Shown here one piece after another: positions 4,104-53,389 of a stretch of DNA of 64,000 nt. Each line of letters opens with the position of its first letter. Position 1 is the first letter of the stretch. The DNA is from a virus, in IMG/VR virus record IMGVR_UViG_3300042934_000519, positions 1-64,000 of that record, one strand, 5' to 3'. The notes beneath the pieces are model-generated. The model was not told where the DNA came from, searched no databases, and saw nothing but the letters and a program-made list of their open reading frames with translations. Both the position numbers and the translations under genes were made by a program.

Positions 4104-4104
4104 T

Positions 4105-5260: not shown

Positions 5261-5268
5261 CGTTTAAA

Positions 5269-5668: not shown

Positions 5669-5675
5669 ATTTCAT

Positions 5676-5850: not shown

Positions 5851-5870
5851 GCCCTTTAAAGAGACACGCC

Positions 5871-6074
5871 ATGCTTGAGTCCATTGAAGAGAACCAGACT
5901 TATCGGTCTCCTAGTGGCCTTGAGTTCAAGGTGTTGTCACTTGCAAGACACGCTCAAGACTGTTCATGGCCCATGGTCGTGTACACTAATCTGGAGCCTA
6001 CCAAAGACGCTCCTACTGGAACCGTCTGGGTAATCGCAGAGAGCATCTTCCTGCGAACGTTTTCATTGTTGTAA
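5871..6074 (+). CDS. DUF1653-like small protein
   Basis: YRS..G.EFKV...ARH....MVVY..L....VWV.....F pattern. Confidence 0.6.
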   Translation: MLESIEENQTYRSPSGLEFKVLSLARHAQDCSWPMVVYTNLEPTKDAPTGTVWVIAESIFLRTFSLL

Positions 6075-6076
6075 TC

Positions 6077-6151
6077 CCCTGGATAGCTCAGTCTGGTAGA
6101 GCAGCGACCCCTGGTTGCATGTCGTAGGTTCGAATCCTACTCTCGGGGCCA
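6077..6151 (+). tRNA. tRNA-like RNA with a 5-nt anticodon loop (non-decoding/pseudo)
   Basis: Normal D-arm, GTTCGAAT T-loop and CCA; anticodon arm GCGAC-CCCTG-GTTGC; one acceptor mismatch. Confidence 0.75.
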
Positions 6152-6155
6152 TTTC

Positions 6156-6272
6156 TGACAAACTCACACTCGCAGGCCATGGAGGGTGGGACATGCTGTA
6201 CGGCGTTCCTAGATCGCCAGCGGTGACCGCGTAGCCCCGTAACCAATCGGAAACGTGCCACTGAGTTTGTCA
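6156..6272 (+). ncRNA. Closed-stem spacer RNA between tRNAs
   Basis: 11-bp perfect terminal stem TGACAAACTCA/TGAGTTTGTCA enclosing internal hairpins. Confidence 0.45.
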
Positions 6273-6283
6273 TTCGTTTTAAT

Positions 6284-6361
6284 TGGGGTGTCGCCTAGTC
6301 TGGCCTAAGGCAACGGGTTTTGATCCCGTGAGCATTGGTTCGAATCCAATCACCCCTTCCA
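6284..6361 (+). tRNA. tRNA-Gln(TTG)
   Basis: Cloverleaf, loop TTTTGAT, U1:U72 mismatch, CCA. Confidence 0.9.
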
Positions 6362-6383
6362 TTTCGCATTGGAGATCTGCACG

Positions 6384-6599
6384 ATGTGCAACCGTTTAGG
6401 TAAACGCAAGCGCCTTCTCCAAGGCAAGACAGCTGACCTCCCCTTCTCTTTGAAAGGGTTAGCAGGTTACTGTCCGAACCCTTCTGACTTCGTCTCATCC
6501 GTGCCCAGTTCGGTCAAACGTACAGGCGTGCTTCACATTACGGAGCATCCAGACGGCAGCGTCCAGTCGGTCCTCGTTCCCGATTCAACAGTATCATAG
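6384..6599 (+). CDS. Hypothetical protein
   Basis: GGAG 9 nt upstream; stop codon inside tRNA-Ile. Confidence 0.35.
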   Translation: MCNRLGKRKRLLQGKTADLPFSLKGLAGYCPNPSDFVSSVPSSVKRTGVLHITEHPDGSVQSVLVPDSTVS

Positions 6600-6666
6600 C
6601 TCAGCTGGCTAGAGCGCCGCCCTGATAAGGCGGAGGTCCGTGGTTCAAGTCCACGTGGTACTACCA
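6590..6666 (+). tRNA. tRNA-Ile(GAT)
   Basis: Cloverleaf, loop CTGATAA, A73, CCA. Confidence 0.95.
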
Positions 6667-21681: not shown

Positions 21682-21778
21682 GTACATACACAGCCAGGGC
21701 ACGTGCCCTGGCTGTGTATGCCTTCTTTTTTCTTTCGAATACTATGTTGAGGACTTCGCACACACAGGAACTATTAAC

Positions 21779-24797: not shown

Positions 24798-24958
24798 TAA
24801 GCAAGGCAGAGGACCTTCGGGTCCTCTGTTTATGCCGTCTATTGAAAAACAATGAGGTCCTACATTACTAACGTGAAGGTGGTCACTTCAAGTCGTCTTT
24901 TAAAGAAATACCTGATCGTATTCTTATACGCCCCTTAACCTTTGTAGGAACTCAACCC

Positions 24959-26398
24959 ATGAAATTCCGTGAACACCGCGGCAGTCTCGATGACTCGATG
25001 AGAACGTCGGTCGAACTGGGCAATCATTTTGCCGACCTCTGCAATCACCTTCGTATTCTGCAAGGCGGAGAAGGCAACGCGTTGCCAGTGATTTACCGCA
25101 ATGACCAGATCATGTTCAAAGTGGCTGGTGGGCCCGACGCCCGTATCGGTTGGGAAGGTTCAGTCTACGTCATCCTCGACGGACATGGCGTACTTGGCAT
25201 GGTAGACCGCATTCCGGAAGGCACTCCAGCTGTTCAAGTACTGCCTTCCGTTGACGCAGGTGTTGCCATGTTGGCAGCGCAGAACGAGTACAAAGCAGAT
25301 GAGCATGTAGGTGACACGCAAAAGCATTACTTCACAACGGCGGGCGGTGAAGCATCGCTGAACGATTTGATTGCACTTGCAGGAGCAACGACTACCCGTG
25401 CCGACGTCCCACTCATCCACGCTACTGGATCTCGGGAGCCTGAACATTACGACTCCGTTGTATCGGCTCTTCCTCAGTTGGAATCCACGCCGCTCGCCAA
25501 TGGGCAGCATGAGACCTTCAATGGTGCAGAGTGGCTCAAGAAGCTACGTGATATGGTTGCCAACGAAGACAACGACCAGGCACTCGTCTTCATCGACAGC
25601 TTGAGTTCAGCCACGGCGCAGACAATAACCCCTCCTGCAAAAGTCGAACCCGGTCAAGGGGCAGCTGCCTTTGCCAAGCTCGAAGATTGGGCTGAAGACT
25701 TCGGTCATCCTGACTTCCAGTCGTGGGTTCAGTCTCTGCCGCCTCACATCGTGTCTCAGTGGAAACAGGCCGACGCCGGTATGGTTATCGTCCCAGACGC
25801 TGAGCACATGACAGAAGCGATGGTGGATGCTTCTCGTGGGCTTCATCTGTATTACATGGAAGCCGGTAGTGGCGTACGTTGCGATCACATGCGCAAGCAC
25901 TTGGATCGTTACGCGCCATGGGCTTCAAAGCACTACCCGCAATGGTTCCGTGAAGACATGGGTCACCTGACCAAAGCCGGGCGGGCCCAGATCGCTCACG
26001 CGTTGACCATTGGCGCGTATTTCGACCCGGATGCACGCGCTGAGTACTTTGCCGAAGCGCGTGAACAGAAAGGTCGTATCTGGGACAACCCTCTGCATCA
26101 GCGAGTGCGGATCACCTTCAAGCCCATCGTCATGGGCGAACTGTTTGAAGGCGGTGGCTTCGTGGTATACAAACGCTTCATGGACGGTGCACAGGTAGGC
26201 GAGAACAAGTTCCTGATCACCCTTAACCGCAGCGACCTGCCAAAAGAACATCGCAAGAAGTTCAAGCAGACGGCGGTGGGTGTCTTCATGTCTTTGGAAA
26301 ACGAAGGCCGTGAAGTGGTGTTCGGCGAAGTGCTGGTCTACCCGAAACTGGAAAGCAGCACCTTCCAAGTGACCCCCAACATGGCGAGTCGTTTCTGA
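24959..26398 (+). CDS. Hypothetical protein
   Basis: 479-aa ORF, AGGA RBS, TACATTAC upstream. Confidence 0.75.
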   Translation: MKFREHRGSLDDSMRTSVELGNHFADLCNHLRILQGGEGNALPVIYRNDQIMFKVAGGPDARIGWEGSVYVILDGHGVLGMVDRIPEGTPAVQVLPSVDAGVAMLAAQNEYKADEHVGDTQKHYFTTAGGEASLNDLIALAGATTTRADVPLIHATGSREPEHYDSVVSALPQLESTPLANGQHETFNGAEWLKKLRDMVANEDNDQALVFIDSLSSATAQTITPPAKVEPGQGAAAFAKLEDWAEDFGHPDFQSWVQSLPPHIVSQWKQADAGMVIVPDAEHMTEAMVDASRGLHLYYMEAGSGVRCDHMRKHLDRYAPWASKHYPQWFREDMGHLTKAGRAQIAHALTIGAYFDPDARAEYFAEAREQKGRIWDNPLHQRVRITFKPIVMGELFEGGGFVVYKRFMDGAQVGENKFLITLNRSDLPKEHRKKFKQTAVGVFMSLENEGREVVFGEVLVYPKLESSTFQVTPNMASRF

Positions 26399-26697
26399 TG
26401 CGCTTTCTCTGGGAGTTCATTGGGACAGGTGCCTGGGTGTTCTTCACGTTGGCGGTGATCTACCTGGTCGCGTTCTGGTTTGATCGTCACTTGCTAAGGC
26501 TGGGTTGGCAAGCCGTCATGCTGATGATGCTCACCCTGTTGGTGATCGTCGGTACGGTCGATTGGTTGCTCATCTTGGACAACCTCAGTGAGAACCTGCG
26601 CTTCACAGCCACCTGCTTTCATCTGACCCTAATGATGATCGTCTCCATCAAACACCAAACCCTGCAAGAATACATCGGCTACCCATTTAAGCGGTAA
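26398..26697 (+). CDS. Membrane protein (about 3 TM)
   Basis: Hydrophobic; TGATG overlap with upstream gene. Confidence 0.65.
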   Translation: MRFLWEFIGTGAWVFFTLAVIYLVAFWFDRHLLRLGWQAVMLMMLTLLVIVGTVDWLLILDNLSENLRFTATCFHLTLMMIVSIKHQTLQEYIGYPFKR

Positions 26698-26703
26698 AAA
26701 GAA

Positions 26704-26820
26704 ATGCCACCTGTTAATGGTGTGAAATTCACCCACATTCAAACCAAATACCGTCTGAAGAAACCTACACTCTTCAGGCGGTTACTGAATTCAATCAAGA
26801 AGAAGGCGGAGCGTAAGTAA
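26704..26820 (+). CDS. Small basic peptide (38 aa)
   Basis: MPPVNGVKF...KKKAERK; TAATG overlap with next gene; weak RBS. Confidence 0.35.
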   Translation: MPPVNGVKFTHIQTKYRLKKPTLFRRLLNSIKKKAERK

Positions 26821-28742
26821 TGGAATATATCGTGAACTACGATAAAACCCTGGACGAACTCAAGGCAGCGGCAGAAGAACTGCTGACCGGTCCTCTGGGT
26901 CTGGGTCATCTGTACCAGATTCAAGACCGCAAGAAGCTGTTCCCCAAGTACCTGCACGCCATCGCGAACATCGCAGCCACCGTGCTGGGTGACGAGAAGG
27001 GTGAACTGCGCCAGTCTCTGAACTGCTCGCAGTGCCATCGCTTCATGTCCCGCGTGGGTGGTGTCGTTTACATGAACGGCAACAAGACTGTATCGGTCTA
27101 CTGGAACCCTGACGTCGTGACTGACCCGGTCATGAAGCAGGTCGTGGCTGAGTTGAAGAAGTGGGTCGAATCGTCCCGCGTTCACAACCTGTTCGACCCT
27201 GAAGGGGCGTACGCTCACTACACTGAGCACACCCACAACACTCAGGACCGTCGCCACTTCTTCATCGCGCCCGAGCAACTGGTTCCACGCAGCTCGGTGA
27301 ACGGCATCAAACTGTCCATGCCGCACAAAGGCACGTTCTTCGGCCGCATGCACGCCCTGATCGACTTCGCGCAGACCATCACCCTGCCGACACTGATGAC
27401 TGTGGACCAATGGTTCCAGACCAAGCTGCTGACCCCGGCCGGTGATTCTGTCACCACCATGAAGGCGCTGAAGAACCTGTTGACCTCGCTGGCCACCATC
27501 AAGAACCAGCCGGATTATCTGGGCCTGAAAACCTTCGACAAAGAAACCACGCTGGTCAACCTGCTGTGGCGTTACGCGTTGACGGACAGCAACCTGCTGA
27601 CGGCCAAGAACTCCTCGTTGGGTGAGCTGCTGACCCGCCTTCAGGCCTTCAACGATGGCAAGCGTGCAGACGACTCCATCGCCAAGATCCAGGCCGCCTA
27701 CAAGGATCAAACCAGCGCCATCAAGTACCAGCGCACAGTGGCTCCTGCTTCGGTCAACCAGATCGAGAAGACCATGATAGCGCTGGAAGAAGGCGATTGG
27801 CTGCGTTCGATGGAACAGCAAGAAGCGCTGGAAGCTGAACTGCCTGCGGTCTGGGTGTCGAAGGCTCCGTACAGCGAAGAAGCTCCGGTGCAAGAAGCCG
27901 AAGAAGAAACGTCGTTCGCGGCATTCGCTGCCAAAGCCAAAACCGGTGAAGGCAAGAAGTCCGGTGGCGTCTTGACGGCCACTGGCCTGACTGACGTGGG
28001 TTACTTCTTCAACGAGATCATGCCGAACGCTGAGTCGATCGCCATTGTCTTGGGCCAGAACAACCAGATGAAGCCGACCTTCATCAACCGCATGAAGCAC
28101 CTGGATGCCAAGCCTATCTTCCGCTGGGACAGCGCCGAAAAGCCAGGCAAGTTCATCCTGTTCGGCTACGAGCATCCGTTCCAAGTGCCGGAGCTGGTGA
28201 CCAAAGACGTACCGACCCAGAACAACCAGTTCTTCGTCAACGTCCTATCCATCACCACCCCGATCGTCATCGGCGTCGAGTTCTCTGAAAAGAGCAAAGA
28301 GCCGATCATGTTCAACCTCGGCGGTTTCCGTGCACCGATCCCTTCTCGCCCGGCGCTGTTTGCTGATGCGATCAAAGGCGAACTGTACGACCACCGTCGT
28401 GCGATCGAGGACTACTCCAAGAACACCCAGCTCAAAGTGCCGACCGAACAACCAGCGGTGGCTTTCATGTTGGGCGCTCGTTCCCCTCACCAATCGGCCC
28501 AGAGCATCCCTGGCCTGGAAGTGCGCGTCAAGTTCACCCCGGAATACGCGGCCATCATCGGTGCGGAATTCGGCGTGTACAAGATCGACCTGAAAGGCTA
28601 TATCGTTGAGCCAGAAATCAGCAAGTTCGAAGTGCTGCGTCCGCTCGGCGTGCCAACTCCTGCTCCAGCGCCTGTTCCTGAGGCAGCAGCAGAACTGGCT
28701 TCGCCTGCTATCCAACACTCCGAAGGCGCTGACCTTCAGTAA
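26820..28742 (+). CDS. Conserved jumbo-phage hypothetical (NCSQC motif)
   Basis: 640 aa, strong codon bias, GGAG RBS. Confidence 0.8.
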   Translation: MEYIVNYDKTLDELKAAAEELLTGPLGLGHLYQIQDRKKLFPKYLHAIANIAATVLGDEKGELRQSLNCSQCHRFMSRVGGVVYMNGNKTVSVYWNPDVVTDPVMKQVVAELKKWVESSRVHNLFDPEGAYAHYTEHTHNTQDRRHFFIAPEQLVPRSSVNGIKLSMPHKGTFFGRMHALIDFAQTITLPTLMTVDQWFQTKLLTPAGDSVTTMKALKNLLTSLATIKNQPDYLGLKTFDKETTLVNLLWRYALTDSNLLTAKNSSLGELLTRLQAFNDGKRADDSIAKIQAAYKDQTSAIKYQRTVAPASVNQIEKTMIALEEGDWLRSMEQQEALEAELPAVWVSKAPYSEEAPVQEAEEETSFAAFAAKAKTGEGKKSGGVLTATGLTDVGYFFNEIMPNAESIAIVLGQNNQMKPTFINRMKHLDAKPIFRWDSAEKPGKFILFGYEHPFQVPELVTKDVPTQNNQFFVNVLSITTPIVIGVEFSEKSKEPIMFNLGGFRAPIPSRPALFADAIKGELYDHRRAIEDYSKNTQLKVPTEQPAVAFMLGARSPHQSAQSIPGLEVRVKFTPEYAAIIGAEFGVYKIDLKGYIVEPEISKFEVLRPLGVPTPAPAPVPEAAAELASPAIQHSEGADLQ

Positions 28743-28792
28743 CCGCTACACGGCAGGGTGGTTCGCCACCCTGCCTTATACCGAGAGTTTAC

Positions 28793-29110
28793 ATGAACTT
28801 CAAAGGCGTGAGCATCAGAACGCGATGGTCCCTGCTTGAACTACTGCTTGTGTTGGTGGTTCTGGCAATGGCGTTGTATGTAGGTTATAGCTACTGGGCA
28901 AACACTGACCCCAAGGTCAAAGAGTTGGCTCGACGTTCATTGATCGTGGCGGGTTACTCCGACGTGGTCATTGGTGACTATCGCATGTGGGGTTGTTCTC
29001 GCAGCGACAGCATTCACCTCAGCTTCACAGGTAAAGGTCCTACAGGTATTCCCACCAAGGGCGTGGCCTGTGCAGATCTGTTCTCCAAAGAATTCACTGT
29101 CCGTCATTAA
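28793..29110 (+). CDS. Membrane-anchored hypothetical protein
   Basis: N-terminal TM; two Cys in the C-terminal domain. Confidence 0.65.
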   Translation: MNFKGVSIRTRWSLLELLLVLVVLAMALYVGYSYWANTDPKVKELARRSLIVAGYSDVVIGDYRMWGCSRSDSIHLSFTGKGPTGIPTKGVACADLFSKEFTVRH

Positions 29111-29119
29111 GGAGTCTCC

Positions 29120-29356
29120 ATGAGCATCGGTGCTATCTTGCTGTTAACTGCTACTGCTGGTGCCCATGGGTATTCCGTGAGCGTGACACCTGTGGCCGAC
29201 ATGGATGAGTGCTTTCGTGTCCGCGAAGCAGTTGCCCTGACGTTTGTTCGTAAAGACCAGTACGAGATGTCCAGCATCCCCAACGTGTGGAAGACCCGCG
29301 AAGGTCAGTACAACTACGGGCGTAACTCGGTCAAACTTGAATGCAAGCCCGTATAA
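29120..29356 (+). CDS. Hypothetical protein
   Basis: AAGGAG RBS. Confidence 0.65.
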   Translation: MSIGAILLLTATAGAHGYSVSVTPVADMDECFRVREAVALTFVRKDQYEMSSIPNVWKTREGQYNYGRNSVKLECKPV

Positions 29357-29365
29357 GGAGCGACC

Positions 29366-29638
29366 ATGTGTCGTCGTCTTGGTAAGAAGCACTTTCAGTA
29401 CGTCGGTACCGAAGGGCTGGAGCAACAAAAGAAAGAACGCATGATCCGTGCGCCGCATCGGTTCCTCTGCGACAGTTACATGGTGTGCATCCTTAACGAT
29501 CACACTAACCTTCGTGAGAAGCTCTGGAGCCCCCAGAACAACAACCCACAGGGCATTGCCAAACCGTTGCGCAACAGTAAGGCAAAACTGTACGCCAAGC
29601 TTAAACGCTATTACGACCGTGCCGGTAACGGCAAATGA
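29366..29638 (+). CDS. Basic hypothetical protein
   Basis: AAGGAG RBS. Confidence 0.6.
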   Translation: MCRRLGKKHFQYVGTEGLEQQKKERMIRAPHRFLCDSYMVCILNDHTNLREKLWSPQNNNPQGIAKPLRNSKAKLYAKLKRYYDRAGNGK

Positions 29639-30096
29639 CCAATGCGCCCAGCTACGTGCTGGATGAATCCATGAAAGACGTCTACCCAGGCGTCGATTAC
29701 TACCGTCAACTCCTCACCAAAGAGAGCATTCCCATGAAACTGAACCTCGCGCAATTCGTCACCCCTCTGATCGAATCCGGTGCCCTGAAGGCCACGGTCA
29801 TTGATGGCGTCAACTTCTTCGGTGCGACCGTCATCTCGATCGACGAGAAGAAGAACAAGATCCAGCTGGAAATCGGCGACGATCCTGACACCAACATCAG
29901 CGCTCGCCTGACCTACGAAGGCGACAACGAAGTGAAGCTGGGTGCCAAGCTCAAGTTCACCGTCGAAGGCGAAGTCAAGTTTGTCGAACTGCCGTCGGCT
30001 CCTGCTCGTCAGGCTGCTCCTGCTCAGTCGGCTCGCCGTAGCCCTGATCGCAGCATGGTCGATCCAATGAAAGCGGCTCGCCAAGGTCGCGAGTAA
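29635..30096 (+). CDS. Hypothetical protein (start may be the internal MKLNL)
   Basis: Strong codon bias in the 3' part. Confidence 0.6.
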   Translation: MTNAPSYVLDESMKDVYPGVDYYRQLLTKESIPMKLNLAQFVTPLIESGALKATVIDGVNFFGATVISIDEKKNKIQLEIGDDPDTNISARLTYEGDNEVKLGAKLKFTVEGEVKFVELPSAPARQAAPAQSARRSPDRSMVDPMKAARQGRE

Positions 30097-30155
30097 TCCC
30101 CGGTGCCGGGAGGGTTCGCCCTCCCGGTCTATGCCGTCAACCCTCGAGATAACCC

Positions 30156-30689
30156 ATGACCACGATAGTTTTCAAAGATGGCCATTTGGCCGCGGACACC
30201 CTCGCAGTAACAGGTAACTCAGTGACTTACCTGATTCCCCACAAGAAGATCAGTCTCAGTACCGATAAGCGCATTGCTTACGGGATCTCTGGGATGGTGA
30301 TTGAACCCGAATGGGTCCCTGATTTGGAACGAGCGCTTTTGGCGTTCGTCATGGAACACCGCAATGCCAAGAGCTTCAAAGCTCCGATGCCCAAGGAACT
30401 CGTTGACCTGATCGAACACCGTGACTTCATCCTCATGACCAAAGATCAGGTCTACACCAAATACGACGGCGTCTCCCCGGACGGGTCTCGTTTCATGTCT
30501 CGCCTGCTGCCCGGTGAACATGCCTCGGTGGGCACTGGTAAACTCTACGCCACCATGGCTTGCTTGTACGGGCATACTGCCCGTGGAGCCGTCCAGTTCG
30601 CCATGGAGAACGATTGCTTCACGTACCCTGGTGACATTGACACCATCAAGCAAACGTCGCTCAAACCGCTGCCTAAGGAGGTCAAATGA
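30156..30689 (+). CDS. Ntn-hydrolase, HslV/proteasome-beta-like peptidase
   Basis: N-terminal (M)TTI, AADT, K near position 33, VGTG (GSG-equivalent). Confidence 0.7.
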   Translation: MTTIVFKDGHLAADTLAVTGNSVTYLIPHKKISLSTDKRIAYGISGMVIEPEWVPDLERALLAFVMEHRNAKSFKAPMPKELVDLIEHRDFILMTKDQVYTKYDGVSPDGSRFMSRLLPGEHASVGTGKLYATMACLYGHTARGAVQFAMENDCFTYPGDIDTIKQTSLKPLPKEVK

Positions 30690-31231
30690 GCCAGGTCGTC
30701 GTCTACCGGGATGAGAGTCTGCTCTTCTCCACCAACATGTACACCATGAGCCTGACCACCGTACGCGTGCCGCTCGATTACTGGGTGTGCAAAGCCGGAC
30801 TGCTCATTCCGATCAACCAGACTGCTCCGGCGCTGATCAACTTCTTCAACGGCAAGAACACGGCGCCAATGAGTACCGAGTCCACGCCTCACGGGATTCT
30901 GGTGACCATCACAGGTGACATTTACCACGTCGAGATCAAACTCGAGCAAGGTAAGAGCCCGGAAGAAGGTGAACGCTTTGGCAAGTTGTACCCAACGGGT
31001 CCCGGCATCAGTTGGGTCCACTCCATCGGTGATGTCTCAGCAGGTAAAGCCGAAGCCGCCATGCGGCTGGCCAAGGACATGAACGAGGTCAAGAAGCTGA
31101 TGATCACGGCGGACGTATTCAACGCCAAGCAGCTGGAGATCTACACGATGAAGGACCTCATCGAAAAGATCTCAGTGATCCATGTCAAGAAATTCCCAGA
31201 AGACTGGAAGGAGAAAAAGAATGCAGTATGA
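30686..31231 (+). CDS. Hypothetical, possible degenerate Ntn-fold paralog
   Basis: MSQVVVYRD vs MTTIVFKD; SIG..AEAAMRL region; ATGA coupling. Confidence 0.55.
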   Translation: MSQVVVYRDESLLFSTNMYTMSLTTVRVPLDYWVCKAGLLIPINQTAPALINFFNGKNTAPMSTESTPHGILVTITGDIYHVEIKLEQGKSPEEGERFGKLYPTGPGISWVHSIGDVSAGKAEAAMRLAKDMNEVKKLMITADVFNAKQLEIYTMKDLIEKISVIHVKKFPEDWKEKKNAV

Positions 31232-31766
31232 CATGCACAGTGAATACCCTGTCATCCTTCGCCAGACCGACGAAGGTGTAATTGGGACGTGGTACGAGAA
31301 CCGCTTCAAAGACCCGGCCATCATCTTAAAGGATCTTGAAGCCTATCCTGACCTTAAAGAGAAGGTGGCTAAGATCCACGAGTACGCAGCGACTCACGGC
31401 GGCAAGATGCCGGAGTTCAAACACAAAGTGGAGATCTTCAGTCGCGTTCGTCATCTGGCCAGCATCACCAAAGGGTACAGCCCCTTTGATCTGGTGGAAT
31501 TGACAGGACCTGCCTACTTTGAACCGCTGTCACATCCTGAATGGGCGGTCTCCGGTGAATCGACGATCGAGTGGGACATCCCGGACGACCGCGACGATAC
31601 TGAGTCGAAGTTTTCCATGCAGTTAGATGGAACGGTCCTTAAGAGCCTCAGTGCTTGGAACGTTTCAGAAGAGCAATGGCTGCCTGTGGACAAGATCTTC
31701 ATTCCGTTCAACACCCTGATGACCGACAAGATCGTCGGCTTTGACCTGGTGCCGATCATCGTGTAA
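31221..31766 (+). CDS. Hypothetical protein
   Basis: AAGGAG RBS. Confidence 0.65.
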   Translation: MQYDMHSEYPVILRQTDEGVIGTWYENRFKDPAIILKDLEAYPDLKEKVAKIHEYAATHGGKMPEFKHKVEIFSRVRHLASITKGYSPFDLVELTGPAYFEPLSHPEWAVSGESTIEWDIPDDRDDTESKFSMQLDGTVLKSLSAWNVSEEQWLPVDKIFIPFNTLMTDKIVGFDLVPIIV

Positions 31767-31789
31767 TAAAATACACGGTGGCAAAGTGC

Positions 31790-32641
31790 TATGTGAAAAG
31801 CGAGCAGTAACCCCTTAACTAAGGACAGTCAATGTTCTCAACCAACGGGGTGTTCTCTCTCCTTCGTAAGATCGTGTCGCAGATTCGCTGTCAGGTTAGA
31901 CTGACCCGAGTCTTGGCACGGTTAAACCGGGAGAGGGCCCCTTCGGCGCCAAAGACGCTAATGCTGCGTGGGACGCAGTCACGCCACGACCATAAGGCGG
32001 TCGGTTAGGCGTCGGCTGCGACGAGATTAGAAAATCTTACAGCTTAATGAGGGGGTCGCGCTCCTCTAAGGATGGAAATTGGGGTTTACCGCAATCATCT
32101 GCGGGTTAATGCTGTACTGCAACACGGCCGTGAGCGATCTGTCTTTCAGACCGGCTGCACGCCCGGAGATTCCGTTAGTGATAGCTGCTCGCGATTTGTC
32201 GCTGGTAGCTGTAAACGCCTTCGTGCCCGCGCTTCACCCGTACAGTCCGCCCTACCAGGCTGACTCTGGGACGATGGCCCCACTGACGAACATGCACAGT
32301 CCAGCGTTGCTAATGCAGATGAGTACTACGGTCGTACCACGCCCAGGGTTCCAGACCCTGTAAGCCACTGGAACGATCGGAGTGCACACACATAGCTGCA
32401 CCCGTGAGCGGATTGAGTTCCGTACTTGATGTAAGAGGCAGTTGTCTCTCATTGGCAAGCACGTGTGTCAGGCTCGAAGACTGCGGTTGGGTCTAATCGC
32501 TGCGATTACCCTAGGATCAGATCTTCCCCTGCACCCTTGTCAAGATGCTAAACAATGATCCGCCACCCCTTCACGATTCCACTTCCTAGTCGCACTGGGC
32601 AGCCGAGAATCATAAGGGGCGGCGTTCATTCCTTTATGCCG
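31790..32641 (+). ncRNA. Candidate large (about 850 nt) structured ncRNA or RNA pair
   Basis: Long gap without a credible gene; TATG start; closing helix 31800-31807/32185-32192; many hairpins; pseudoknot 32344-32372; ends in hairpin plus TATGCCG. Confidence 0.6.
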
Positions 32642-32682
32642 TGATCTTATGTACGCTTTCTTTTTTCTTTGGGTATGCTGAC

Positions 32683-33126
32683 ATGAGTACGGTAGAAGCA
32701 GTGGATGCTCCAGTTCCTTTGGTGGAACTGATCAACGGTAAATTCAGCTATTTCGACACGCGTCGTGTTGATAAGCACAACCACTCAATGCTTAACCCTT
32801 TCCGTCGACTCGACGAAGTGGTCGGTGACATTCAGGTTCCCCAGTGGAACGTGACTGACTTCGCCTCCATTAACACCCTCCGAGATTTAGGTCTGTTCAT
32901 TATCTTTGCCTTGCTGGCAGGGTACGGTGATCAGTCCGCCACCATCCACGACTACCTCTACGGCGGTGGTCTTCCTGTCAGCGGTCAAGTGATCTATCGC
33001 AAAGACGCTGATGACATCTATTACCGTGCCCTACGAGCTGAAGGTGTGGCTCGCTGGCGTGCCGGTATCTTCTACGCGGGTGTTCGCCTCTTTGGGGCTT
33101 CCCGTTGGAAAGGAGCCGTTCAATGA
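32683..33126 (+). CDS. DUF1353 family protein
   Basis: TDFASI, IHDYLY, RKDADDIY, VRLFG motifs. Confidence 0.8.
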   Translation: MSTVEAVDAPVPLVELINGKFSYFDTRRVDKHNHSMLNPFRRLDEVVGDIQVPQWNVTDFASINTLRDLGLFIIFALLAGYGDQSATIHDYLYGGGLPVSGQVIYRKDADDIYYRALRAEGVARWRAGIFYAGVRLFGASRWKGAVQ

Positions 33127-33419
33127 GTGCACCCCTGTTTACCGTCCACAGTTCGTTGGCGGCCATCCCCGGTGACAAAGGCAAGTGGCTGGAGTCGTAC
33201 CGTCTGGCGGACCACATGCTGATCCTGATGGAGTGCTGGCGTAAAGTGCCTGCCACCCAATTGGTCGGTGATGAGTTCCAAGCGGTCAAAGGCATGCTCA
33301 GCTTCATCATGGCTTCCTCCGGTACGCACCTTGATGCTGTCCTGACGGCTCAGTCCATGGAAGAGCTGTTTGCCATCCAGAAAGAGTTCCAAGCCATTTG
33401 CAAGTCCCGCTGCACATAG
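33123..33419 (+). CDS. Hypothetical protein
   Basis: AAGGAG RBS; ATGA overlap. Confidence 0.6.
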   Translation: MSAPLFTVHSSLAAIPGDKGKWLESYRLADHMLILMECWRKVPATQLVGDEFQAVKGMLSFIMASSGTHLDAVLTAQSMEELFAIQKEFQAICKSRCT

Positions 33420-34683: not shown

Positions 34684-34736
34684 CGGCATAGACAGGGGAC
34701 CTTCGGGTCCCCTGTCCTTGTTTCTTTTTTCTTTGG
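34684..34736. terminator. Bidirectional terminator cassette
   Basis: CGGCATA-GACAGGGGACC-TTCG-GGTCCCCTGTC..TTTCTTTTTTCTTTGG between convergent genes. Confidence 0.8.
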
Positions 34737-40417: not shown

Positions 40418-40466
40418 TCCATCAACCCTTGCAACACAACCCTTACCTAACCTCAGGAAGTTACTC

Positions 40467-41765
40467 ATGTCTACTAAACTCTTCAACGAAGATGGCACCA
40501 TTGTAATCCGTCACGTCAGCGACGCTAATGTGACCGATCATGTCCCGGCTCACGTGTATCGTTTGCGCGAACACCCGATGAGCAGCGATCTGTACCTGGT
40601 GCCTGATCGCCTGAAGTTCGACGTCCCGGCCAAGTTCTACGGTCGGCACAATACCCACAAGCAAGAGATCCTCACTGCTTACAACAAGCACGAAGGTTCG
40701 GTGGGTGTTCTGCTGCGCGGTATTAAAGGCGCGGGCAAGTCGGCGTTGGCAGAAGACCTGTGCAACACGGTCCTGGAAAAGTACCTGCCGGTACTGTTTG
40801 TTGACCGTCCGTTCTCCCCCGCAGTGCTGCAACGTGTGACCACCCAAATGGGCCCATGCGTGGTGTACTTCGATGAGTTCGGCAAAGTGTACGGCGCTAA
40901 GGAACGCCGCGACCTGCTGACCTACTTCTCGGACTCCTCGTTCAAGAAGGTGATGTTCATCGTCACCAGCAACAGTAAGAAAGAACTCGACAAGTACATG
41001 ATCGACCGTCCGGGTCGTTTCCTGTTCCGCATCGACTTCAAAGCACTGGACCCACTGGCCATCATCGAGATGATTGACGACCACGGGTTGAAAGGCGAAA
41101 TGGCTCAGATGATGAACGCCTACGTGAATAACAACACGGTGACGTTCGACATGCTGCGCTTCTTGATGCCGATCGCGGTGGAAGCAGGGAACTACATGGA
41201 ATTCAATCGCCGGATCGAAATCCTGAACTGCCCGCCGCCGGTCTACCCTCACCTGACCCCGACCAAGGTCATCTTCCAAGGCGAACCGTTCTACGGCTAC
41301 GTCAAGCTGGGTGTGTCTCCGGGCATGAAGTTCACCATTGAACTGAAAACCGAAACCGACCCTGAGCCGCTCTACAAGGGCGAGTTCGACATGAACACCC
41401 GTAACCAGGTCCTTACCGAGAACTTCCTCGGTGTCGAACGTCAGTTCGTTCTGGAAGGCGACGTGATCGTGTTGGCCCGTGAAGAATGGCGCAACACTGT
41501 GCAAGAAAGCCGTAGCGATCGCTTCCGTGATCCTGCACTGGATGTCAAGCGTGAGGAGGCTCCTCGCGAAATCGGCATGTCGATGTCTGACATCATGCAC
41601 ATGGGCGGTATGGGTAGCATGTTCAGAACGCGCTCGGAACTGCTCGGTGGCGGTATGTCGGAAGATCAGAAGAAGCTGTTGGAACTGGCAGACTTTATCG
41701 TCAAGAACAACAAGCCTGCTGAAACGGCGGCTGTAGAAGAGACTGAAAGCGAAACTGCCAAGTAA
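40467..41765 (+). CDS. AAA+ ATPase
   Basis: Walker A GIKGAGKS, Walker B VVYFDE, sensor TSN, DRPGR arginine finger. Confidence 0.88.
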   Translation: MSTKLFNEDGTIVIRHVSDANVTDHVPAHVYRLREHPMSSDLYLVPDRLKFDVPAKFYGRHNTHKQEILTAYNKHEGSVGVLLRGIKGAGKSALAEDLCNTVLEKYLPVLFVDRPFSPAVLQRVTTQMGPCVVYFDEFGKVYGAKERRDLLTYFSDSSFKKVMFIVTSNSKKELDKYMIDRPGRFLFRIDFKALDPLAIIEMIDDHGLKGEMAQMMNAYVNNNTVTFDMLRFLMPIAVEAGNYMEFNRRIEILNCPPPVYPHLTPTKVIFQGEPFYGYVKLGVSPGMKFTIELKTETDPEPLYKGEFDMNTRNQVLTENFLGVERQFVLEGDVIVLAREEWRNTVQESRSDRFRDPALDVKREEAPREIGMSMSDIMHMGGMGSMFRTRSELLGGGMSEDQKKLLELADFIVKNNKPAETAAVEETESETAK

Positions 41766-41818
41766 CGGCATAGACAGGGAGCCTCACGGCTCCCTGTCTA
41801 GCTTTCTTTTTTCTTTGG
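41766..41818. terminator. Bidirectional terminator cassette
   Basis: CGGCATA-hairpin-TTTCTTTTTTCTTTGG. Confidence 0.8.
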
Positions 41819-47640: not shown

Positions 47641-47700
47641 CAGCATAGAGCCCCAGAGCCGTAGTGGCTCTGGGGCTCTATGCGTCACGCTACTGCGTCG

Positions 47701-49599
47701 TTAGACAGCAGGTGGGGTCTCGCCTTCGATCTCGGTCGCAGCGTCGTTGAACGCAGCGGTCAGAGAGTCAACCAGGCCTTGCAGCGCGGTGTCGCCCGAT
47801 TCCATGCTCAGTGCCAAGGCATCGAGTTCTGGTTTCAGGGTAGCCGGGGTCACGAACTTGGCAGCTTCGGTACCGGCAGTCACTTCGGCTTGCGAAGCGG
47901 TGACGTCAGCGAAGGACTTGCCACCCAGCAATGCCGAGTCTGCTGCTTGTTCGGTTTTGCCCAGCTTGTCGTCAACGGCAGTGATCAGGGCAGCCAGTGC
48001 ATCGCCTTCCTGAGTCAGCTTGTCAGCCAGTTCCTTCAGGGTGTCGAGTGCAGTCGGAGCACCGTCAACCAACGCGCTGATTGCATCGTCTACCTTGGCT
48101 TTGAGGGCCAGAGCAGTGATGTACTTCGCATCGTCGGTACCAGCGATGGCTTCAGCCGAAGTGGCCTTTTCCAGACCGCCAGCTTCTGCCTGAGCGATGT
48201 AGGCATCCAGCGCATCCTGAACAGCCTGGATGGTTTGAACGTCGCCACCACGGATGGTCGCCAGGATTTGCTCGAGGGTCTGGCCTTCCAGCTTGCTGGA
48301 ATCGACAGCAGTACCAGTCGCAGGCAGCGCAGCGTCAGCGGTAGCCTTGGCAGCATCAGCAGTGGCTTGAGCAGCAACGGCTTTACCGTCAGCAACCTCA
48401 GCAGCGTCACCAGCCAATTGAACAGCAGCGTCCACAGCTTCGATGGAAGTGTTGTGGCCAGACAGGATGTCTTTCAGCGCTTGTGGTTCAGCACCTTCGG
48501 TCACCACGACAGGGTTGTTACCCAGATCGCTGGTTTCAGTCAGGAAGCCAGAACCGCCACCGGTGGCTTCTTCCAGCGCGGTGATACGAGCAGCCAGCGG
48601 ATCGGTGATCGCTTTGGTGGCAACGTCGGCATCAGCGATGAACTGAGCGAGGGTCTTACCGCCGAACTTCGCAGAGTCAGCAGCAGTTTCCAGTTTGCCC
48701 AGCTTGTCAGCCAGAGACGAGACGATGGCCGCAACGGCGTCGTCTTGGTCAGCCAGCTTGTCAGCCAGCTCTTTGAGGGTGTCCAAGGCTTCTGGAGCGC
48801 CATCAACGAGGGCGTTGACCGCTTGAGCCACACCGGCTTTCACACCAGCAGCGGTGACGAACTTGGCGTCGTCAGTACCGGCTTCCACTTCTTCAGCAGT
48901 GGCCTTGGCAGGGATCAGGGCTTCAACAGCGTCCAGGTCATCCTGGATACCGGCGAAGATCTGAGCGAAGGTCTGTGCGCCAACGCTGTAGCCAGCGAAG
49001 TCGTCAGTCTTCTTGACCACTTCGGAGAGGTCCACACCGCCAGTAGCGGCGTCGAGGATCTCAGCGAGGGTCTTGCCTTCCAGCTTGCTGGAGTCAGCGG
49101 CAACGCCGGTCTTGTCCAGTTTGTTACCGACCGAGGTCAGCAGCTGGTTGATGACGTCCGGGTTGTTCTGAAGCGCAGCAGCGATTTCAGCGATGGTGTC
49201 CAGGGTCTCTGGAGCAGCGCCGACCTTGCTGGCCCAGAAGGCCGCCAGGTTTGCTGGAACGAGGTAGCGGTCAACGCCAGTGGCGGTAACAGCTTCAGCG
49301 TCGGTAGCCGGAGCGTAGTTCTCGACCTTGTCCAGACCCACTTGGGCCTTGGTCACCTGATGCGGGTTATCGCGACGGGCGATGAACGCGTTCAGGATGG
49401 TTTCGAGTGCGTCGATCTCAGCGTCAGTGGCGCTGGTGATCTCTGCCTTGACCTGAGCCAAGGTTTTGCCTTCGAAGAGGCTGGAGTCAGCAGCACGCTC
49501 GGTCTTACCGAGTTTGAGGCCGAGTTGAATTTTCAGCGCAGCGTTGAAGGCCGCGATGGATTGAAGCAGTTGAGCAAGTCTTTCAGGACTCAGAGGCAT
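47701..49599 (-). CDS. Repeat-rich tail-fibre-type structural protein
   Basis: Repeats KLGK..AADS..xGK, GAPxxLDTLKELA, AT..E..AGTDD.K.VT and RRDNPHQVTKAQVGL. Confidence 0.75.
   Translation of the reverse strand: MPLSPERLAQLLQSIAAFNAALKIQLGLKLGKTERAADSSLFEGKTLAQVKAEITSATDAEIDALETILNAFIARRDNPHQVTKAQVGLDKVENYAPATDAEAVTATGVDRYLVPANLAAFWASKVGAAPETLDTIAEIAAALQNNPDVINQLLTSVGNKLDKTGVAADSSKLEGKTLAEILDAATGGVDLSEVVKKTDDFAGYSVGAQTFAQIFAGIQDDLDAVEALIPAKATAEEVEAGTDDAKFVTAAGVKAGVAQAVNALVDGAPEALDTLKELADKLADQDDAVAAIVSSLADKLGKLETAADSAKFGGKTLAQFIADADVATKAITDPLAARITALEEATGGGSGFLTETSDLGNNPVVVTEGAEPQALKDILSGHNTSIEAVDAAVQLAGDAAEVADGKAVAAQATADAAKATADAALPATGTAVDSSKLEGQTLEQILATIRGGDVQTIQAVQDALDAYIAQAEAGGLEKATSAEAIAGTDDAKYITALALKAKVDDAISALVDGAPTALDTLKELADKLTQEGDALAALITAVDDKLGKTEQAADSALLGGKSFADVTASQAEVTAGTEAAKFVTPATLKPELDALALSMESGDTALQGLVDSLTAAFNDAATEIEGETPPAV
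47933..47968 (-). repeat. 36-bp inverted repeat, copy 2
   Basis: Exact reverse complement of 21850-21885. Confidence 0.9.
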
Positions 49600-50098
49600 G
49601 ATCTGCACCTTGTGGATCAGGGAGGTTGGTGTTGGAGATGTTCTCGGTCATAGCATCGAATTCCAAGGCCATCTTGGTAAACGCTGTATCTAGTTCATCA
49701 CTGAGGGTGTAGTCACCTGCTGGGCGACCGCCGAGATTGTTAGAGTCGTTAACAGTACCTGCTCTCGCCTCCGCAATGATTTCTTCTTTGGTGCTGCCGC
49801 CTAACTTCAGGGAGTTGACAGCAACATCATCGACGCCCAGCTTGTCCTTGAGAAGCTCTACCATCTGCTCAATAGTGTAGGAACCCACCTGTTCCGCGGT
49901 AACCTTGTTAGGGTTATCACGGCGTTTGGCGTACATCCCCAATACAGAGTTAAGCGTGGTACGGAACGATTTACGCCCCGTACCACCGCCGTCAAGACGA
50001 GTAGCGATCGAGATCTCGATGCTATCGTCCCCAGACAGCAGGTCCAGTTCAAGCGGATCTAGCTGAGCAATCGAGACGGTGAGGTTTTGATTGCCCAT
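49583..50098 (-). CDS. Tail-fibre-related protein
   Basis: RRDNPNKVTAEQVG and NSLKLGG repeats. Confidence 0.65.
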   Translation of the reverse strand: MGNQNLTVSIAQLDPLELDLLSGDDSIEISIATRLDGGGTGRKSFRTTLNSVLGMYAKRRDNPNKVTAEQVGSYTIEQMVELLKDKLGVDDVAVNSLKLGGSTKEEIIAEARAGTVNDSNNLGGRPAGDYTLSDELDTAFTKMALEFDAMTENISNTNLPDPQGADHASES

Positions 50099-51104: not shown

Positions 51105-51157
51105 TTACAGGCTCCGGAATAAGAAGGAGGCCCGAAGGCCTCCGACTTATGGCTTAC

Positions 51158-53389
51158 TTAGAACACGATTTCGCACACACCGCCAGCGCAACCAGCCGCG
51201 CCCATGGTGTCAACTTCGGTGTAGACCTGTTGGTTCAGTTCCACGGCGAAGTCAATCGCTTTGAGGTCACGAGTGATCGCTTCCCATTTGTGCAGGTTGT
51301 GCACGTCTTTGAGGCAGTAGGTCATCTTCAACTTATCGCCACCGAAATGGTTCTCGGCGAACTTGTTGGCACGACGTACCCAGTCACGCTTCAGGAGGTC
51401 CGCAGAGTTGTCTTCGCTCAGCGGGGCAGCGTTACCCAAGGCCGTAGAGCAAGCGCGCCACAGGTCGTCGTTGAAGGCGTGGCAGCCATCGACGATCAGG
51501 CCCGAGGCGAACATGGTCGCCGAGCCGTACATTTCCAGCAGCTGCTCTGGCGTGAAGACTTCGGTGAACGGAGCCTGCACGTAGTCGCGATCGCCCGAGG
51601 TGCCCAGCAAGCTGATGCCTGCGAAGAACTGACGGTTGTCGAAGATGTACTGTTCCACTTCAGCCCAATCGTCCACCGAGATGGTGTTGGAGATGTTGTG
51701 GCTCAGCCAGTCAGTGACGCAGTGCTCTGGGTTACGACCTTCGTTGATCCAGACTTCCTGAGCCTTCTTGACGAACTCCAGCTGCTTCTTGCCGTACAGG
51801 TCGGACTTGAAGATACTGCCTTCGTTGGCCACGATCGGGAACGAGATGACGACGTCGGTACCACTTGGGTTCCAGCGCGACAGCTCGGACATTTTCGGGT
51901 TGGCTTTCTCGATCAACTGAGTGACCGCATCCTGGTTGGTCATCTGCACGTTACGGAAGTAACGCTTGGCGTGGTCGCCATGGATACCCGAAGCGCAGCC
52001 CAACAACACCGAGGCATTGCCCGATGGCTTGCAGGTGGTGGTACGCGCTGCTGGCTTGATGCCGATCAGTGCAGCCACTTGCTTGTTGATCTTGCGGACC
52101 AGGTGCGCAGCATCACGCATGTTGTCTTCGTTGAACAGCACGTCCGGGTTGGTCATCCAACCGGTGATCGAGACGCCCAGCAGGGCTTCACGTTCGGTGA
52201 TGTCCGCCGAAGCTTGGTCCAGGTAGCTGAAGTTGGTGTAGCCCGCTTGCAGGGTACCGAGAATGGCACCGGCCTTGGAGGCGTACATCAGCTTCTCACG
52301 GGTGTCACAGAACGCACCGTTGGTTTCGGTCAGGTTGCACTTCTGGAAGCCCGAACGGCCGTCTTCGGTGTAACCACGCAGGCCGATCTCAACGCACGGG
52401 TTGAACAGCGCGTCAGCGTCGTCAGCGAAGATGAAGCCCGGCTCACCGAACTCTTTGGTGCGCTTCATGATGCTGGCCCATTCATCACGGGTCAGTTCAT
52501 CGCGGATCACCAGCACGGAGTTGTTGGAACGGCCACGCTGGGCGTTCTCTTCGTACCAGGCGCCCGTCTTGGCATTCATCATCTCTTCGTCGTCTTTGCC
52601 GAAGAGGGCGATGCAAGCAGCGCGACGGATACCGCCGGACAGAACAGCGTCAGCCATGTGCATAACGAAGTCGTAAGCGACGATCGAACGCATGTCGACA
52701 GTGCCGTCTACGTCTTTGGTTTCACGCTCGAGCAGCTTGCGGCACTGTTCCAGCGAACGCACGAGGCCATCAGGACCTGGGGCTTTGAAGCCGCCGGAGA
52801 TCATGGCACCACGAGGACGGATCTGGCTCACGTCGAAGTGAACAGTCTTGCCTTCGTATTCAGGGAACTCACCGCCACCGACGAAGTAGGACGCCAGCAG
52901 CACACCGAACGCGTCAGACCAACCTTCGATCGAATCCGGGACGGTATAGCTCATCACGTCAGTACGGCTCACAGGCGCGATTGCAGGCAGCTTGGCGACG
53001 TGTTGCTTTTGTACGGAGAAGCCAACGCCGCAACCACACAGCAGCAGGTACATGGCTTCCTGGAAGAAACGTGGACGGTCGACGTAGGACGCCGAGCAGT
53101 TGTACAGACGCGATTCGTGCTTGAAGATTTGCTCGCCACCGAATTGCAGGGCGCGTTGGCTGCCCAGTACTGCTTTCTCTTTGTACGCTTTCTCTGCGAA
53201 GGCAATGGCCTCCTCCAGCTCAGGACTCATGACATGCGCGTACTTTTGACGGTGCATGTTCATCACGCGCTCTACCGAGCCGTTCCAGTCCTCGTAACGC
53301 CCGATTGCATCATCCCAACGCGAGTAGCCCATGAAGAACTTTGAGTCGGCAAGCATGTTCTTCGCGGTGGTGACGGTTTCGTTGTTCAT
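51158..53389 (-). CDS. nrdA: Ribonucleotide reductase catalytic subunit (NrdAk / monomeric NrdJ-like clade)
   Basis: YNC, GCGVGFS, GGIRRAA, NPCVEI, KPSGN and C-terminal CAGGVCE; class not certain. Confidence 0.88.
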   Translation of the reverse strand: MNNETVTTAKNMLADSKFFMGYSRWDDAIGRYEDWNGSVERVMNMHRQKYAHVMSPELEEAIAFAEKAYKEKAVLGSQRALQFGGEQIFKHESRLYNCSASYVDRPRFFQEAMYLLLCGCGVGFSVQKQHVAKLPAIAPVSRTDVMSYTVPDSIEGWSDAFGVLLASYFVGGGEFPEYEGKTVHFDVSQIRPRGAMISGGFKAPGPDGLVRSLEQCRKLLERETKDVDGTVDMRSIVAYDFVMHMADAVLSGGIRRAACIALFGKDDEEMMNAKTGAWYEENAQRGRSNNSVLVIRDELTRDEWASIMKRTKEFGEPGFIFADDADALFNPCVEIGLRGYTEDGRSGFQKCNLTETNGAFCDTREKLMYASKAGAILGTLQAGYTNFSYLDQASADITEREALLGVSITGWMTNPDVLFNEDNMRDAAHLVRKINKQVAALIGIKPAARTTTCKPSGNASVLLGCASGIHGDHAKRYFRNVQMTNQDAVTQLIEKANPKMSELSRWNPSGTDVVISFPIVANEGSIFKSDLYGKKQLEFVKKAQEVWINEGRNPEHCVTDWLSHNISNTISVDDWAEVEQYIFDNRQFFAGISLLGTSGDRDYVQAPFTEVFTPEQLLEMYGSATMFASGLIVDGCHAFNDDLWRACSTALGNAAPLSEDNSADLLKRDWVRRANKFAENHFGGDKLKMTYCLKDVHNLHKWEAITRDLKAIDFAVELNQQVYTEVDTMGAAGCAGGVCEIVF

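Follow-up and report, generated by a model that had tools for sequence, protein, structure and literature searches.

A highly folded accessory element with two small open reading frames in a phiKZ-like jumbo phage

Can a gap between phage genes be a large structured RNA and a messenger at the same time? The question arises from a locus in a virus record of the IMG/VR database (IMGVR_UViG_3300042934_000519; 72,983 bases, estimated completeness 27%), the first 64,000 bases of which form the window analyzed here. Between the stop of a 194-amino acid (aa) open reading frame (ORF) (TAATAA, 31766) and the ATG, at 32683, of a gene of the DUF1353 family lies a gap, 31767-32682, most of which (31790-32641; hereafter, the element) had been described in the initial annotation of the sequence as a structured non-coding transcription unit of about 850 nucleotides (nt). 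The DUF1353 gene (32683-33126, also annotated as 'tail assembly chaperone') is the immediate downstream neighbor of the element, and the other neighbors are small hypothetical genes. The claim that the gap lacks a credible gene is accurate insofar as the longest ORF, with both strands considered, encodes 94 aa, but it overlooks that two ORFs, here denoted ORF-A (31832-32008) and ORF-B (32079-32363), are preceded by TAAGGA at normal spacing and are open in homologs. The element is not a plain non-coding unit. Translation of ORF-B, named in the initial annotation as a refuting observation, has to be reckoned with, given that its TTG start lies 6 nt downstream of TAAGGA and its frame is open in all lineages examined.

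The reading that we consider the likeliest, and hold tentatively, is that of a lineage-specific accessory cassette that is mainly a folded RNA of ~675 nt (31960-32634) and in which at least ORF-A is translated. Under this interpretation, a cassette of ~850 nt would be read rightward in a Pseudomonas-type (phiKZ-like) soil jumbo phage, with transcription presumably starting from the TATG at 31791-31794. The transcript would be selected mainly for its fold, the 31960-32634 part being folded into a closed central domain and a series of hairpins that are conserved. Translation of ORF-A would probably yield a small, very basic, single-helix peptide; if ribosomes enter ORF-B, which lies in the folded core, their passage, rather than the product, would matter. 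Such a transcript would be a dual-function RNA in which the folded part works at the RNA level, perhaps with the basic peptide of the adjacent ORF-A as a partner.

Folding and selection on base pairing

The comparisons below involve two diverged copies of the element. A search with the virion structural protein of the same phage (22236-24797) retrieved nine related jumbo phage contigs, one of which, G004, carries a colinear, diverged copy; a further copy, L034, was located in IMG/VR with a 21-mer from the most conserved hairpin. Searches of IMG/VR with the 21-mer and with a gapped pattern yielded the same two homologs only. In both, the element is followed by the DUF1353 gene (protein identity of 66% and 62%, respectively) and preceded by a gene that varies.

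The strong folding proposed in the initial annotation is borne out. The minimum free energy (MFE) of the 852 nt on the plus strand is -333.6 kcal/mol compared to -294.4 +/- 5.8 for 20 dinucleotide shuffles (z = -6.82); for the minus strand of the same 852 nt, z is -2.19, and coding controls from the same window (n = 20, 285 nt each) give -0.61 +/- 1.04, with a minimum of -2.54. Given that the z score is far beyond the shuffles, the folded gap is real and not a chance product. The thirds of the window element have z scores of -3.8, -2.7 and -1.7, and three sub-regions examined in each of the three sequences range from -1.7 to -5.1. The window fold includes two near-perfect long hairpins, 31857-31935 and 32563-32625. 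The consensus fold of the three sequences has an energy of -164.9 compared to -124.3 +/- 6.0 for 25 column shuffles (z = -6.7), with z = -4.0 for the reverse strand, and the structure conservation index is 0.53.

Several substitution patterns respect the predicted pairing. Among the pairs predicted from the window only in which both sides are changed in G004, 35 of 66 still pair (25-39% in slid controls), and the reciprocal cross-prediction test gives 32 of 61 (31-45% in slid controls). Of the 93 columns that differ between G004 and L034, 26 break predicted pairs, compared to 39.6 +/- 4.1 under random placement (P = 0.001). Single changes that keep a pair by wobble number 15 and 12 on the plus strand and 7 and 3 on the minus strand, an excess that points to the plus strand. 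Compensatory changes are found in the hairpins at 31963-31979, 32049-32066 and 32434-32449. Comparison of the window ORF-B with two database proteins, P0001 (82% identity) and P0002 (71-74%), allows 31 amino acid-changing base changes to be inferred, 22 of which fall on bases that are unpaired in the window fold, although only 29% of the bases in this region are unpaired (P = 2e-6); four of the 31 break a pair, and two, G32184A and C32209T, are compensatory, converting a G-C pair into A-U. In the G004 lineage, 11 of 21 ORF-B changes are on unpaired bases compared to 33% of the bases (P = 0.05). Taken together, these comparisons of sequences make a good case for selection acting on base pairing, above all in ~31960-32634.

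The detailed structure that had been drawn by eye is only partly retained. All 14 arm pairs named in the initial annotation are in the sequence, approximately where they had been placed, and in the MFE structure six are fully formed and one is formed at 6/7 pairs, but several are not conserved. The helix proposed to close domain 1, GCGAGCAG at 31800 with CTGCTCGC at 32185, forms 0/8 pairs in the MFE structure, and 3/8 are pairable in G004 and L034; the pairing of GTTCTCTC/GAGAGGGC, CGTGTC/GGCACG, GTCAG/CTGAC, TAATCGC/GCGATTA and GGATCA/TGATCC is lost at the aligned columns of both homologs; and the proposed pseudoknot is not conserved, the segment that contains its partner CTGGA (32368) being absent from the homologs. 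Nor is the overall two-domain architecture conserved. Six local hairpins are kept in both homologs, namely, CTGCG/CGCAG and AGAGGC/GTCTCT (both with compensatory changes), CCGCA/TGCGG, CAGGGT/ACCCTG (invariant), CTGGTAG/CTACCAG (5/7 pairs) and CGACC/GGTCG (4/5 pairs in the alignment used). ACGCC/GGCGT is kept at 5/5 pairs in G004 but at only 3/5 in L034.

The initial annotation could not match the element to GOLLD or ROOL by eye, and we obtained no Rfam match. At the gathering threshold, a search of the whole window against Rfam 15 (4227 families) finds only eight tRNAs (4027-6663); at E<=10, the region 31600-32800 has 0 matches to any family, GOLLD, ROOL, OLE, HEARO, RNase P, tmRNA, group I and group II introns, ribozymes and riboswitches included; and the homologous stretches L035 and L036 have 0 matches at E<=1. 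A self-splicing intron was considered and rejected: the upstream ORF ends in TAATAA, the downstream gene has its own start, no intron model matches, and the upstream gene is swapped (in the relative from sequencing run X11, and between G004 and L034) while the element stays. A sponge for CsrA/Rsm proteins was also rejected because the three UAAGG motifs are the phage's own Shine-Dalgarno sequence.

Two small open reading frames in the folded sequence

In this phage, the start codons of genes are typically preceded by TAAGGA(G) at a distance of 5-8 nt. ORF-A, on the plus strand, conforms to this pattern: TAAGGA (31820-31825) is followed, after 6 nt, by ATG (31832), and the frame of 58 aa ends at the stop codon at 32006-32008. 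At the same place, G004 and L034 have AAAGGA, 8 nt and ATG, their counterparts comprise 73 and 67 aa, respectively, and the frame is open in 7/7 sequences. The BLOSUM similarity score between the lineages is 28 in frame (21 identities) and 15 and 7 in the other frames. The predicted peptide contains 12 lysines and arginines versus 2 aspartates and glutamates. In four relatives, residues 1-36 differ at 3, 0, 4 and 13 positions and residues 37-64 at 13, 1, 8 and 15; the replacements in residues 1-36 are conservative, and the N-terminal half is amphipathic. AlphaFold2 predicts a helix at residues 4-35, with a predicted local distance difference test score (pLDDT) of 71-89 over residues 1-30. ORF-A is therefore probably a small basic helical protein.

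Two conserved hairpins (31963-32012, plus strand) coincide with the tail of ORF-A, which evolves fast. In the first, GCUGCG/CGCAGU (31963-31979; helix 9 of the consensus fold), 3/6 pairs are changed on both sides and pairing is 100%; in the second, ACGCC-CGACC [AUAAGGC] GGUCG-GGCGU (31981-32012; helix 10), 7/10 pairs are invariant. The amino acids of the tail differ between the lineages nearly everywhere, and the RNA pairing is maintained. Across ORF-A, the inferred amino acid-changing base changes show no enrichment on unpaired bases (9 of 30, P = 0.55). Also against coding, ORF-A shows 10, 12 and 11 changes between G004 and L034 at codon positions 1, 2 and 3, that is, no third-position excess.

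If both frames were accidents of a G+C-rich folded sequence, the element would be a purely non-coding RNA of ~850 nt, a reading that we regard as quite improbable. It draws on the same fold and the same substitution evidence as the dual-function interpretation. Moreover, the codon-usage scores of both frames (-0.08 for ORF-A and 0.07 for ORF-B) are below the 5th percentile of the phage genes (0.18; mean of 0.36 +/- 0.12). Within ORF-B, one of the off-frames contains only 1 stop in the window, such that open frames are not very improbable in this sequence. The purely non-coding reading does not, however, explain why the ribosome-binding site and ATG of ORF-A are present in both lineages, with in-frame similarity about twice that in the other frames, nor the conservative replacements in the amphipathic N-terminal half of a peptide with a confidently predicted helix; and the same frame of ORF-B is open in two lineages that were found without gene calls. 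A highly folded, seemingly gene-free gap can hide small frames with good ribosome-binding sites, and coding and folding tests should therefore be run together.

ORF-B coincides with the central folded domain (32079-32363, plus strand). It is preceded by the hairpin GAGGGG/CUCCUC (32049-32066), in which one pair is changed on both sides, and by the ribosome-binding site UAAGGA (32067-32072); the sequence CCTCTAAGGA is invariant in the window, G004 and L034. From the TTG at 32079, the start position of which is CTG in the G004 lineage, the frame of 94 aa continues past an internal ATG (32109) to a TAA at 32361-32363. The window, G004, L034 and 13 database proteins share this open register, the database proteins having been found as called genes and so providing no independent proof of an open frame. 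The common TAA is part of an invariant 26-mer, GCCCAGGGUUCCAGACCCUGUAAGCC (32341-32366, plus strand), which spans the stop codon and contains the hairpin CAGGGU[UCCAG]ACCCUG (32344-32360); this 26-mer is 100% identical in the window and both homologs, whereas the DUF1353 protein is only 62-66% identical. Further hairpins within ORF-B are at 32089-32104 (CCGCA/UGCGG) and 32183-32210.

The start region of ORF-B is also predicted to take part in a long-range pairing, of 32080-32113 with a 5' arm at 31803-31817 (plus strand), which corresponds to helices 2 and 3 of the RNAalifold consensus (columns 25-39 with 326-359; 14 pairs, 93-96% of cells paired) and which would gate the ORF-B start. Long-range RNA pairing of this kind gates starts in phage MS2 (the coat-replicase interaction) and in hok mRNA (5'-3' pairing). 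The pairing in the element resembles these cases in that both lineages maintain it, six of its pairs having changed on both sides; it differs in being a prediction from three sequences, and ORF-B is not throughout a short, hydrophobic, toxin-like frame.

The folded sequence could alternatively be a plain cassette of small genes (a 'moron') that encodes two fast-evolving accessory proteins, with a fold that stabilizes the mRNA or tunes translation and a 3' domain that is an untranslated tail; we consider this somewhat unlikely. Canonical TAAGGA precedes both ORFs, both frames are open in all sequences, gene callers predicted both ORF-A and ORF-B in relatives, and the alignment gaps inside both are multiples of three. 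None of the 8 indel sites of the element in four related sequencing runs falls within ORF-B. Between G004 and L034, 10 of the 16 changed codons of ORF-B are synonymous (P = 0.02), a weak signal that would favor a real protein, and the site itself is plastic, located between genes that are adjacent in Pseudomonas phage pPa_SNUABM_DT01. Against two genuine proteins, frame-specific conservation is absent from ORF-B: the similarity score of frame 0, 76, is nearly matched by that of frame 2 (66), which indicates similarity at the nucleotide level. Two close relatives differ from the window at 17 and 24 of 93 compared amino acid positions, with leucine changed to proline twice, and these changes are on unpaired RNA positions, as discussed above. 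AlphaFold2 predicts no fold for ORF-B (pLDDT of 49), its language-model recognition score is 1820 (2300 is reached by 91 of 100 real families), and its start is CTG in the G004 lineage. The conserved peptide motifs of ORF-B, AAI[IV]CG, D.SL and PGFQTL, coincide exactly with conserved RNA hairpins, and the synonymous sites of these motifs are unchanged. Neither ORF matches any Pfam or PHROG family, and an Atlas search gave no usable lead for either. Finally, the small-gene reading has to accommodate ~270 nt of conserved non-coding sequence after ORF-B. If the element nevertheless consists only of two accessory genes, it is a case of ordinary phage mosaicism with an unusually stable mRNA.

As judged from these comparisons, ORF-B evolves like RNA and not like protein, and its product is not conserved; that ribosomes enter it we hold to be possible, short of likely. 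The identification of ORF-B as a lipoprotein or spanin was considered and rejected, the canonical lipobox being absent on inspection by eye.

The 3' domain (32364-32634, plus strand) is non-coding: it has no conserved frame (scores of 0, 10 and 18), and its indel lengths are not multiples of three, either between the lineages or among close relatives. It contains the conserved hairpins CGGAUUGAGUUCCG (32409-32422) and AGAGGC/GUCUCU (32434-32449), and in helix 27 of the consensus two pairs are changed on both sides. The long hairpin at 32563-32625 is variable: its tip (32573-32614) is replaced by 67 letters in three of four runs (X6, X9 and X11), and the hairpin is missing from G004 and L034, that is, it behaves as a variable expansion segment.

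Distribution among phages and the weight of the evidence

Among cultured phages, the closest to the record is Pseudomonas phage pPa_SNUABM_DT01 (structural protein 65.8% identical over 81%); the other matches of the structural protein are to Pseudomonas and Ralstonia jumbo phages and one Salicola jumbo phage. In pPa_SNUABM_DT01, the DUF1353 gene directly follows the structural protein gene, and covariance model R1 of the element finds no match. Likewise, two covariance models find no match in three complete 276-kb relatives, G003, G005 and G006 (DUF1353 52-55% identical), and in G005 and G006 a 471-aa ORF is immediately upstream of the DUF1353 gene. In a further complete relative, G008, there is no DUF1353 match and no convincing covariance-model match (best E = 0.03). 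Two loci with DUF1353 proteins of 44% identity, L003 and L004, show neither the gap nor synteny. When 39 DUF1353 loci of IMG/VR were searched with an nhmmer profile, only the three known copies matched, and a large upstream gap occurs nowhere else.

Other searches were similarly sparse in matches. The phages of INPHARED contain no match, either by DNA or by the upstream protein; IMG/VR, searched by the upstream protein and by a 640-aa protein, yielded no relatives; a 26-mer from 31870-31895 is absent from IMG/VR and the genome contigs searched; the genome contigs hold no copy of the conserved 21-mer; a scan of metagenome contigs with the DUF1353 protein gave only three distant loci (42-44% identity); and a tblastn search with the database protein P0009 against phages found no match. 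Database proteins do, however, indicate at least two further lineages, one represented by P0005, P0009 and P0010 (one of these on a 271-kb contig) and the other by P0006; P0003, P0020 and P0021 are likewise represented at the protein level. Moreover, contigs from four public runs (soil, rhizosphere and other) carry relatives that are ~95% identical. In one of these, X11, 31760-32573 is retained at 25 differences over 814 bases (3%), even though the gene upstream has been replaced. The element is an accessory insert in a plastic region, confined to a few lineages.

The initial annotation had also linked the element with putative RNAs at 3321, 7131 and 46240. Two covariance models find no second copy in the 72,983-base record, so that the element is not a paralog of these.

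Several lines of evidence weigh against the interpretation of the element as a folded RNA with a translated ORF-A, in addition to the codon usage and codon-position changes of ORF-A and the synonymous excess in ORF-B discussed above. The element is missing from pPa_SNUABM_DT01 and four complete relatives, which implies that it is dispensable. The 20 runs listed for the sequence include 0 RNA runs, so that transcription is inferred. The DNA sequences compared are three, those of the window, G004 and L034, and represent two lineages. Covariation, which the initial annotation had proposed as a check, is not demonstrated in the classical sense: RNAalifold counts 47 of 210 pairs changed on both sides (2-13 with slid partners), but shuffled alignments (n = 30) put through the same procedure give 40.0 +/- 4.8, with a maximum of 50, so that the raw count lies within the null and is no evidence. 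The three substitution tests described above, namely, cross-prediction, the classes of change between G004 and L034 and the ORF-B changes, are free of this weakness, and all are positive. The predicted hairpins of the 5' part differ between the window and G004 lineages. The element diverges less between G004 and L034 (11%) than the next gene (23.5%, with 53 of 96 differences at third positions), the upstream genes being unrelated, and this low divergence could also reflect recent exchange in a mosaic region. With respect to the strand, the G004 copy folds equally on both (z = -4.85 on plus, -4.80 on minus), as does, nearly, the 675-nt core of the window (-4.1 and -3.5), and the assignment to the plus strand draws on the wobble counts, the direction of neighboring genes and the z score of the whole element.

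The equal folding of the two strands of G004, along with the long near-perfect hairpins, one of which is swapped in relatives, would fit an element that acts at the DNA level, such as an origin of replication, a site for DNA packaging or accumulated palindromic insertions. We consider this highly improbable. A replication origin was rejected because iteron-like direct repeats are lacking, the repeats present being six families of 10-13 nt with two copies each; wobble-compatible changes are 2-4 times more common on the plus strand, and in the window the z score of the whole element is much stronger on that strand; the two frames and their ribosome-binding sites belong to the plus strand as well; and the element is absent from complete relatives that must still replicate and package their DNA.

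If it is a dual-function RNA, the element invites comparison with several known systems. RNAIII/hld and SgrS/SgrT are dual-function bacterial RNAs in which a small translated frame is located beside or inside a functional RNA structure. The element, as far as it is known from sequence alone, is similar in being highly folded and carrying small frames; it differs in being much longer and in having two frames, one of which, with 84-104 codons, is inside the core. In size class (~600-850 nt), phage-borne location and the many hairpins, it also resembles GOLLD and ROOL. These RNAs are usually found beside tRNA genes in phages and prophages, whereas the nearest tRNA gene to the element ends at 6663, ~25 kb away; furthermore, the element lacks an Rfam match, contains two frames with ribosome-binding sites and is found in few lineages of one phage group. 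GOLLD and ROOL RNAs are reported to form RNA-only assemblies (PMC12286853).

A bolder version of our interpretation, and one that we consider unlikely, is that the element represents a new class of large phage RNA (~675-850 nt) that is both machine and messenger, with a core perhaps bound by the ORF-A peptide and an ORF-B kept open only for remodeling of the fold by ribosomes; it would be a mobile cassette of Pseudomonas-type jumbo phages from soil. To our knowledge, few large folded RNAs of phages exist, none of them with a known role; a literature search covering the closest phage and large jumbo phage RNAs returned no description of the element, which is no proof that none exists. If the favored interpretation is correct, the element would be a new RNA of this kind, located in a swappable accessory region of nucleus-forming-type jumbo phages and under both coding and structural constraint, and would lend itself to studying the function of large RNAs.

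Boundaries, regulatory motifs and the surrounding island

The TATG noted at the 5' edge (31790) is indeed present and conserved in the homologs: the motif GTGCTATG (31787-31794, plus strand) is identical in the window, G004 and L034 despite the differing upstream genes. The TATG at 31791-31794 is a putative phiKZ-type promoter, from which the transcript would start at G31794, late in infection, to end upstream of 32635 or at the T tract 32656-32671. According to PMC4666361, the late promoter of phiKZ is TATG, with the start at its G, and TATG by itself is insufficient even in phiKZ. The resemblance to phiKZ late units extends beyond this conserved edge to the over-representation of TATGCCG ahead of genes, to the beta-like polymerase subunit encoded by relatives and to the nearest cultured phages, which are Pseudomonas and Ralstonia jumbo phages. 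Specifically, G003 and G005 encode a beta-like subunit of the phage multisubunit RNA polymerase that scores above the Pfam cut-off; polymerase genes were not found in the 27%-complete record itself. The phiKZ-like setting that had been proposed is in agreement with the jumbo phage affinity of the plus-strand element and with the RNA-polymerase beta-like gene of its complete relatives.

At the right-hand boundary (32635-32671, plus strand), TATGCCG (32635-32641) is followed by a T tract, CTTTCTTTTTTCTTTG (32656-32671). TATGCCG had been taken as the end signal of the element, but it is one of 16 copies and precedes the next gene. The window contains 16 copies of this motif compared to 4.6 +/- 1.9 expected, a number reached by 0 of 100 shuffles, and the sites are mostly in short intergenic spaces immediately before start codons; examples are at 8430, 24831, 30130, 32635, 33449, 37362 and 46680 on the plus strand and at 34684, 41766, 50723 and 60639 on the minus strand. 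As suggested by this placement, TATGCCG is likely an extended promoter or start motif of the phage's own phiKZ-type RNA polymerase. Because the copy at 32635 precedes the next gene, it marks the start region of the DUF1353 gene and not the end of the element.

A scan of 31300-33200 gave 0 terminator-like sites: in contrast to an intrinsic terminator, the T tract (32656-32671) is separated from the nearest strong hairpin by 30 nt and comes after TATGCCG. Elsewhere in the window, there is a family of near-identical intrinsic terminators, all on the plus strand, that consist of GGCATAGAC, a G+C-rich hairpin and, directly after it, the T tract CTTTCTTTTTTCTTTG (21690-21736, 34690-34735, 41772-41817 and 60645-60691). 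The terminator 16-mer is frequent in G003, G005 and G006. The orientation of the terminators suggests rightward reading for most genes of the window. The GGCATA at their left is the reverse complement of TATGCC, so that some sites may join a rightward terminator with a leftward promoter.

The gene directly upstream of the element (31182-31766; 194 aa) gives way to 446 unlike letters in run X11. The corresponding genes of G004 and L034 show no relationship to each other, differing at 374 of 549 aligned positions, and the stop codon is a sharp mosaic boundary. On a larger scale, an island of ~7.9 kb (24798-32682), which includes the gene of an HslV-like peptidase (30156-30689), separates the virion structural protein gene from the DUF1353 gene. 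The two flanking genes, adjacent in pPa_SNUABM_DT01, are spaced differently in G005 and G006, and the region 24798-32682 is a plastic accessory island.

Two other features of the window are of note. The tRNA cluster at 4027-6663 consists of eight genes (Rfam tRNA model, 43-74 bits) with small ORFs interspersed. At many loci, long open frames of near-equal length occur on both strands, for example, 40461-41771 (minus) with 40467-41765 (plus), 47680-49653 (plus) with 47701-49608 (minus) and 51149-53344 (plus) with 51158-53389 (minus), so that assignment of the gene strand by ORF length alone is unreliable in this window.

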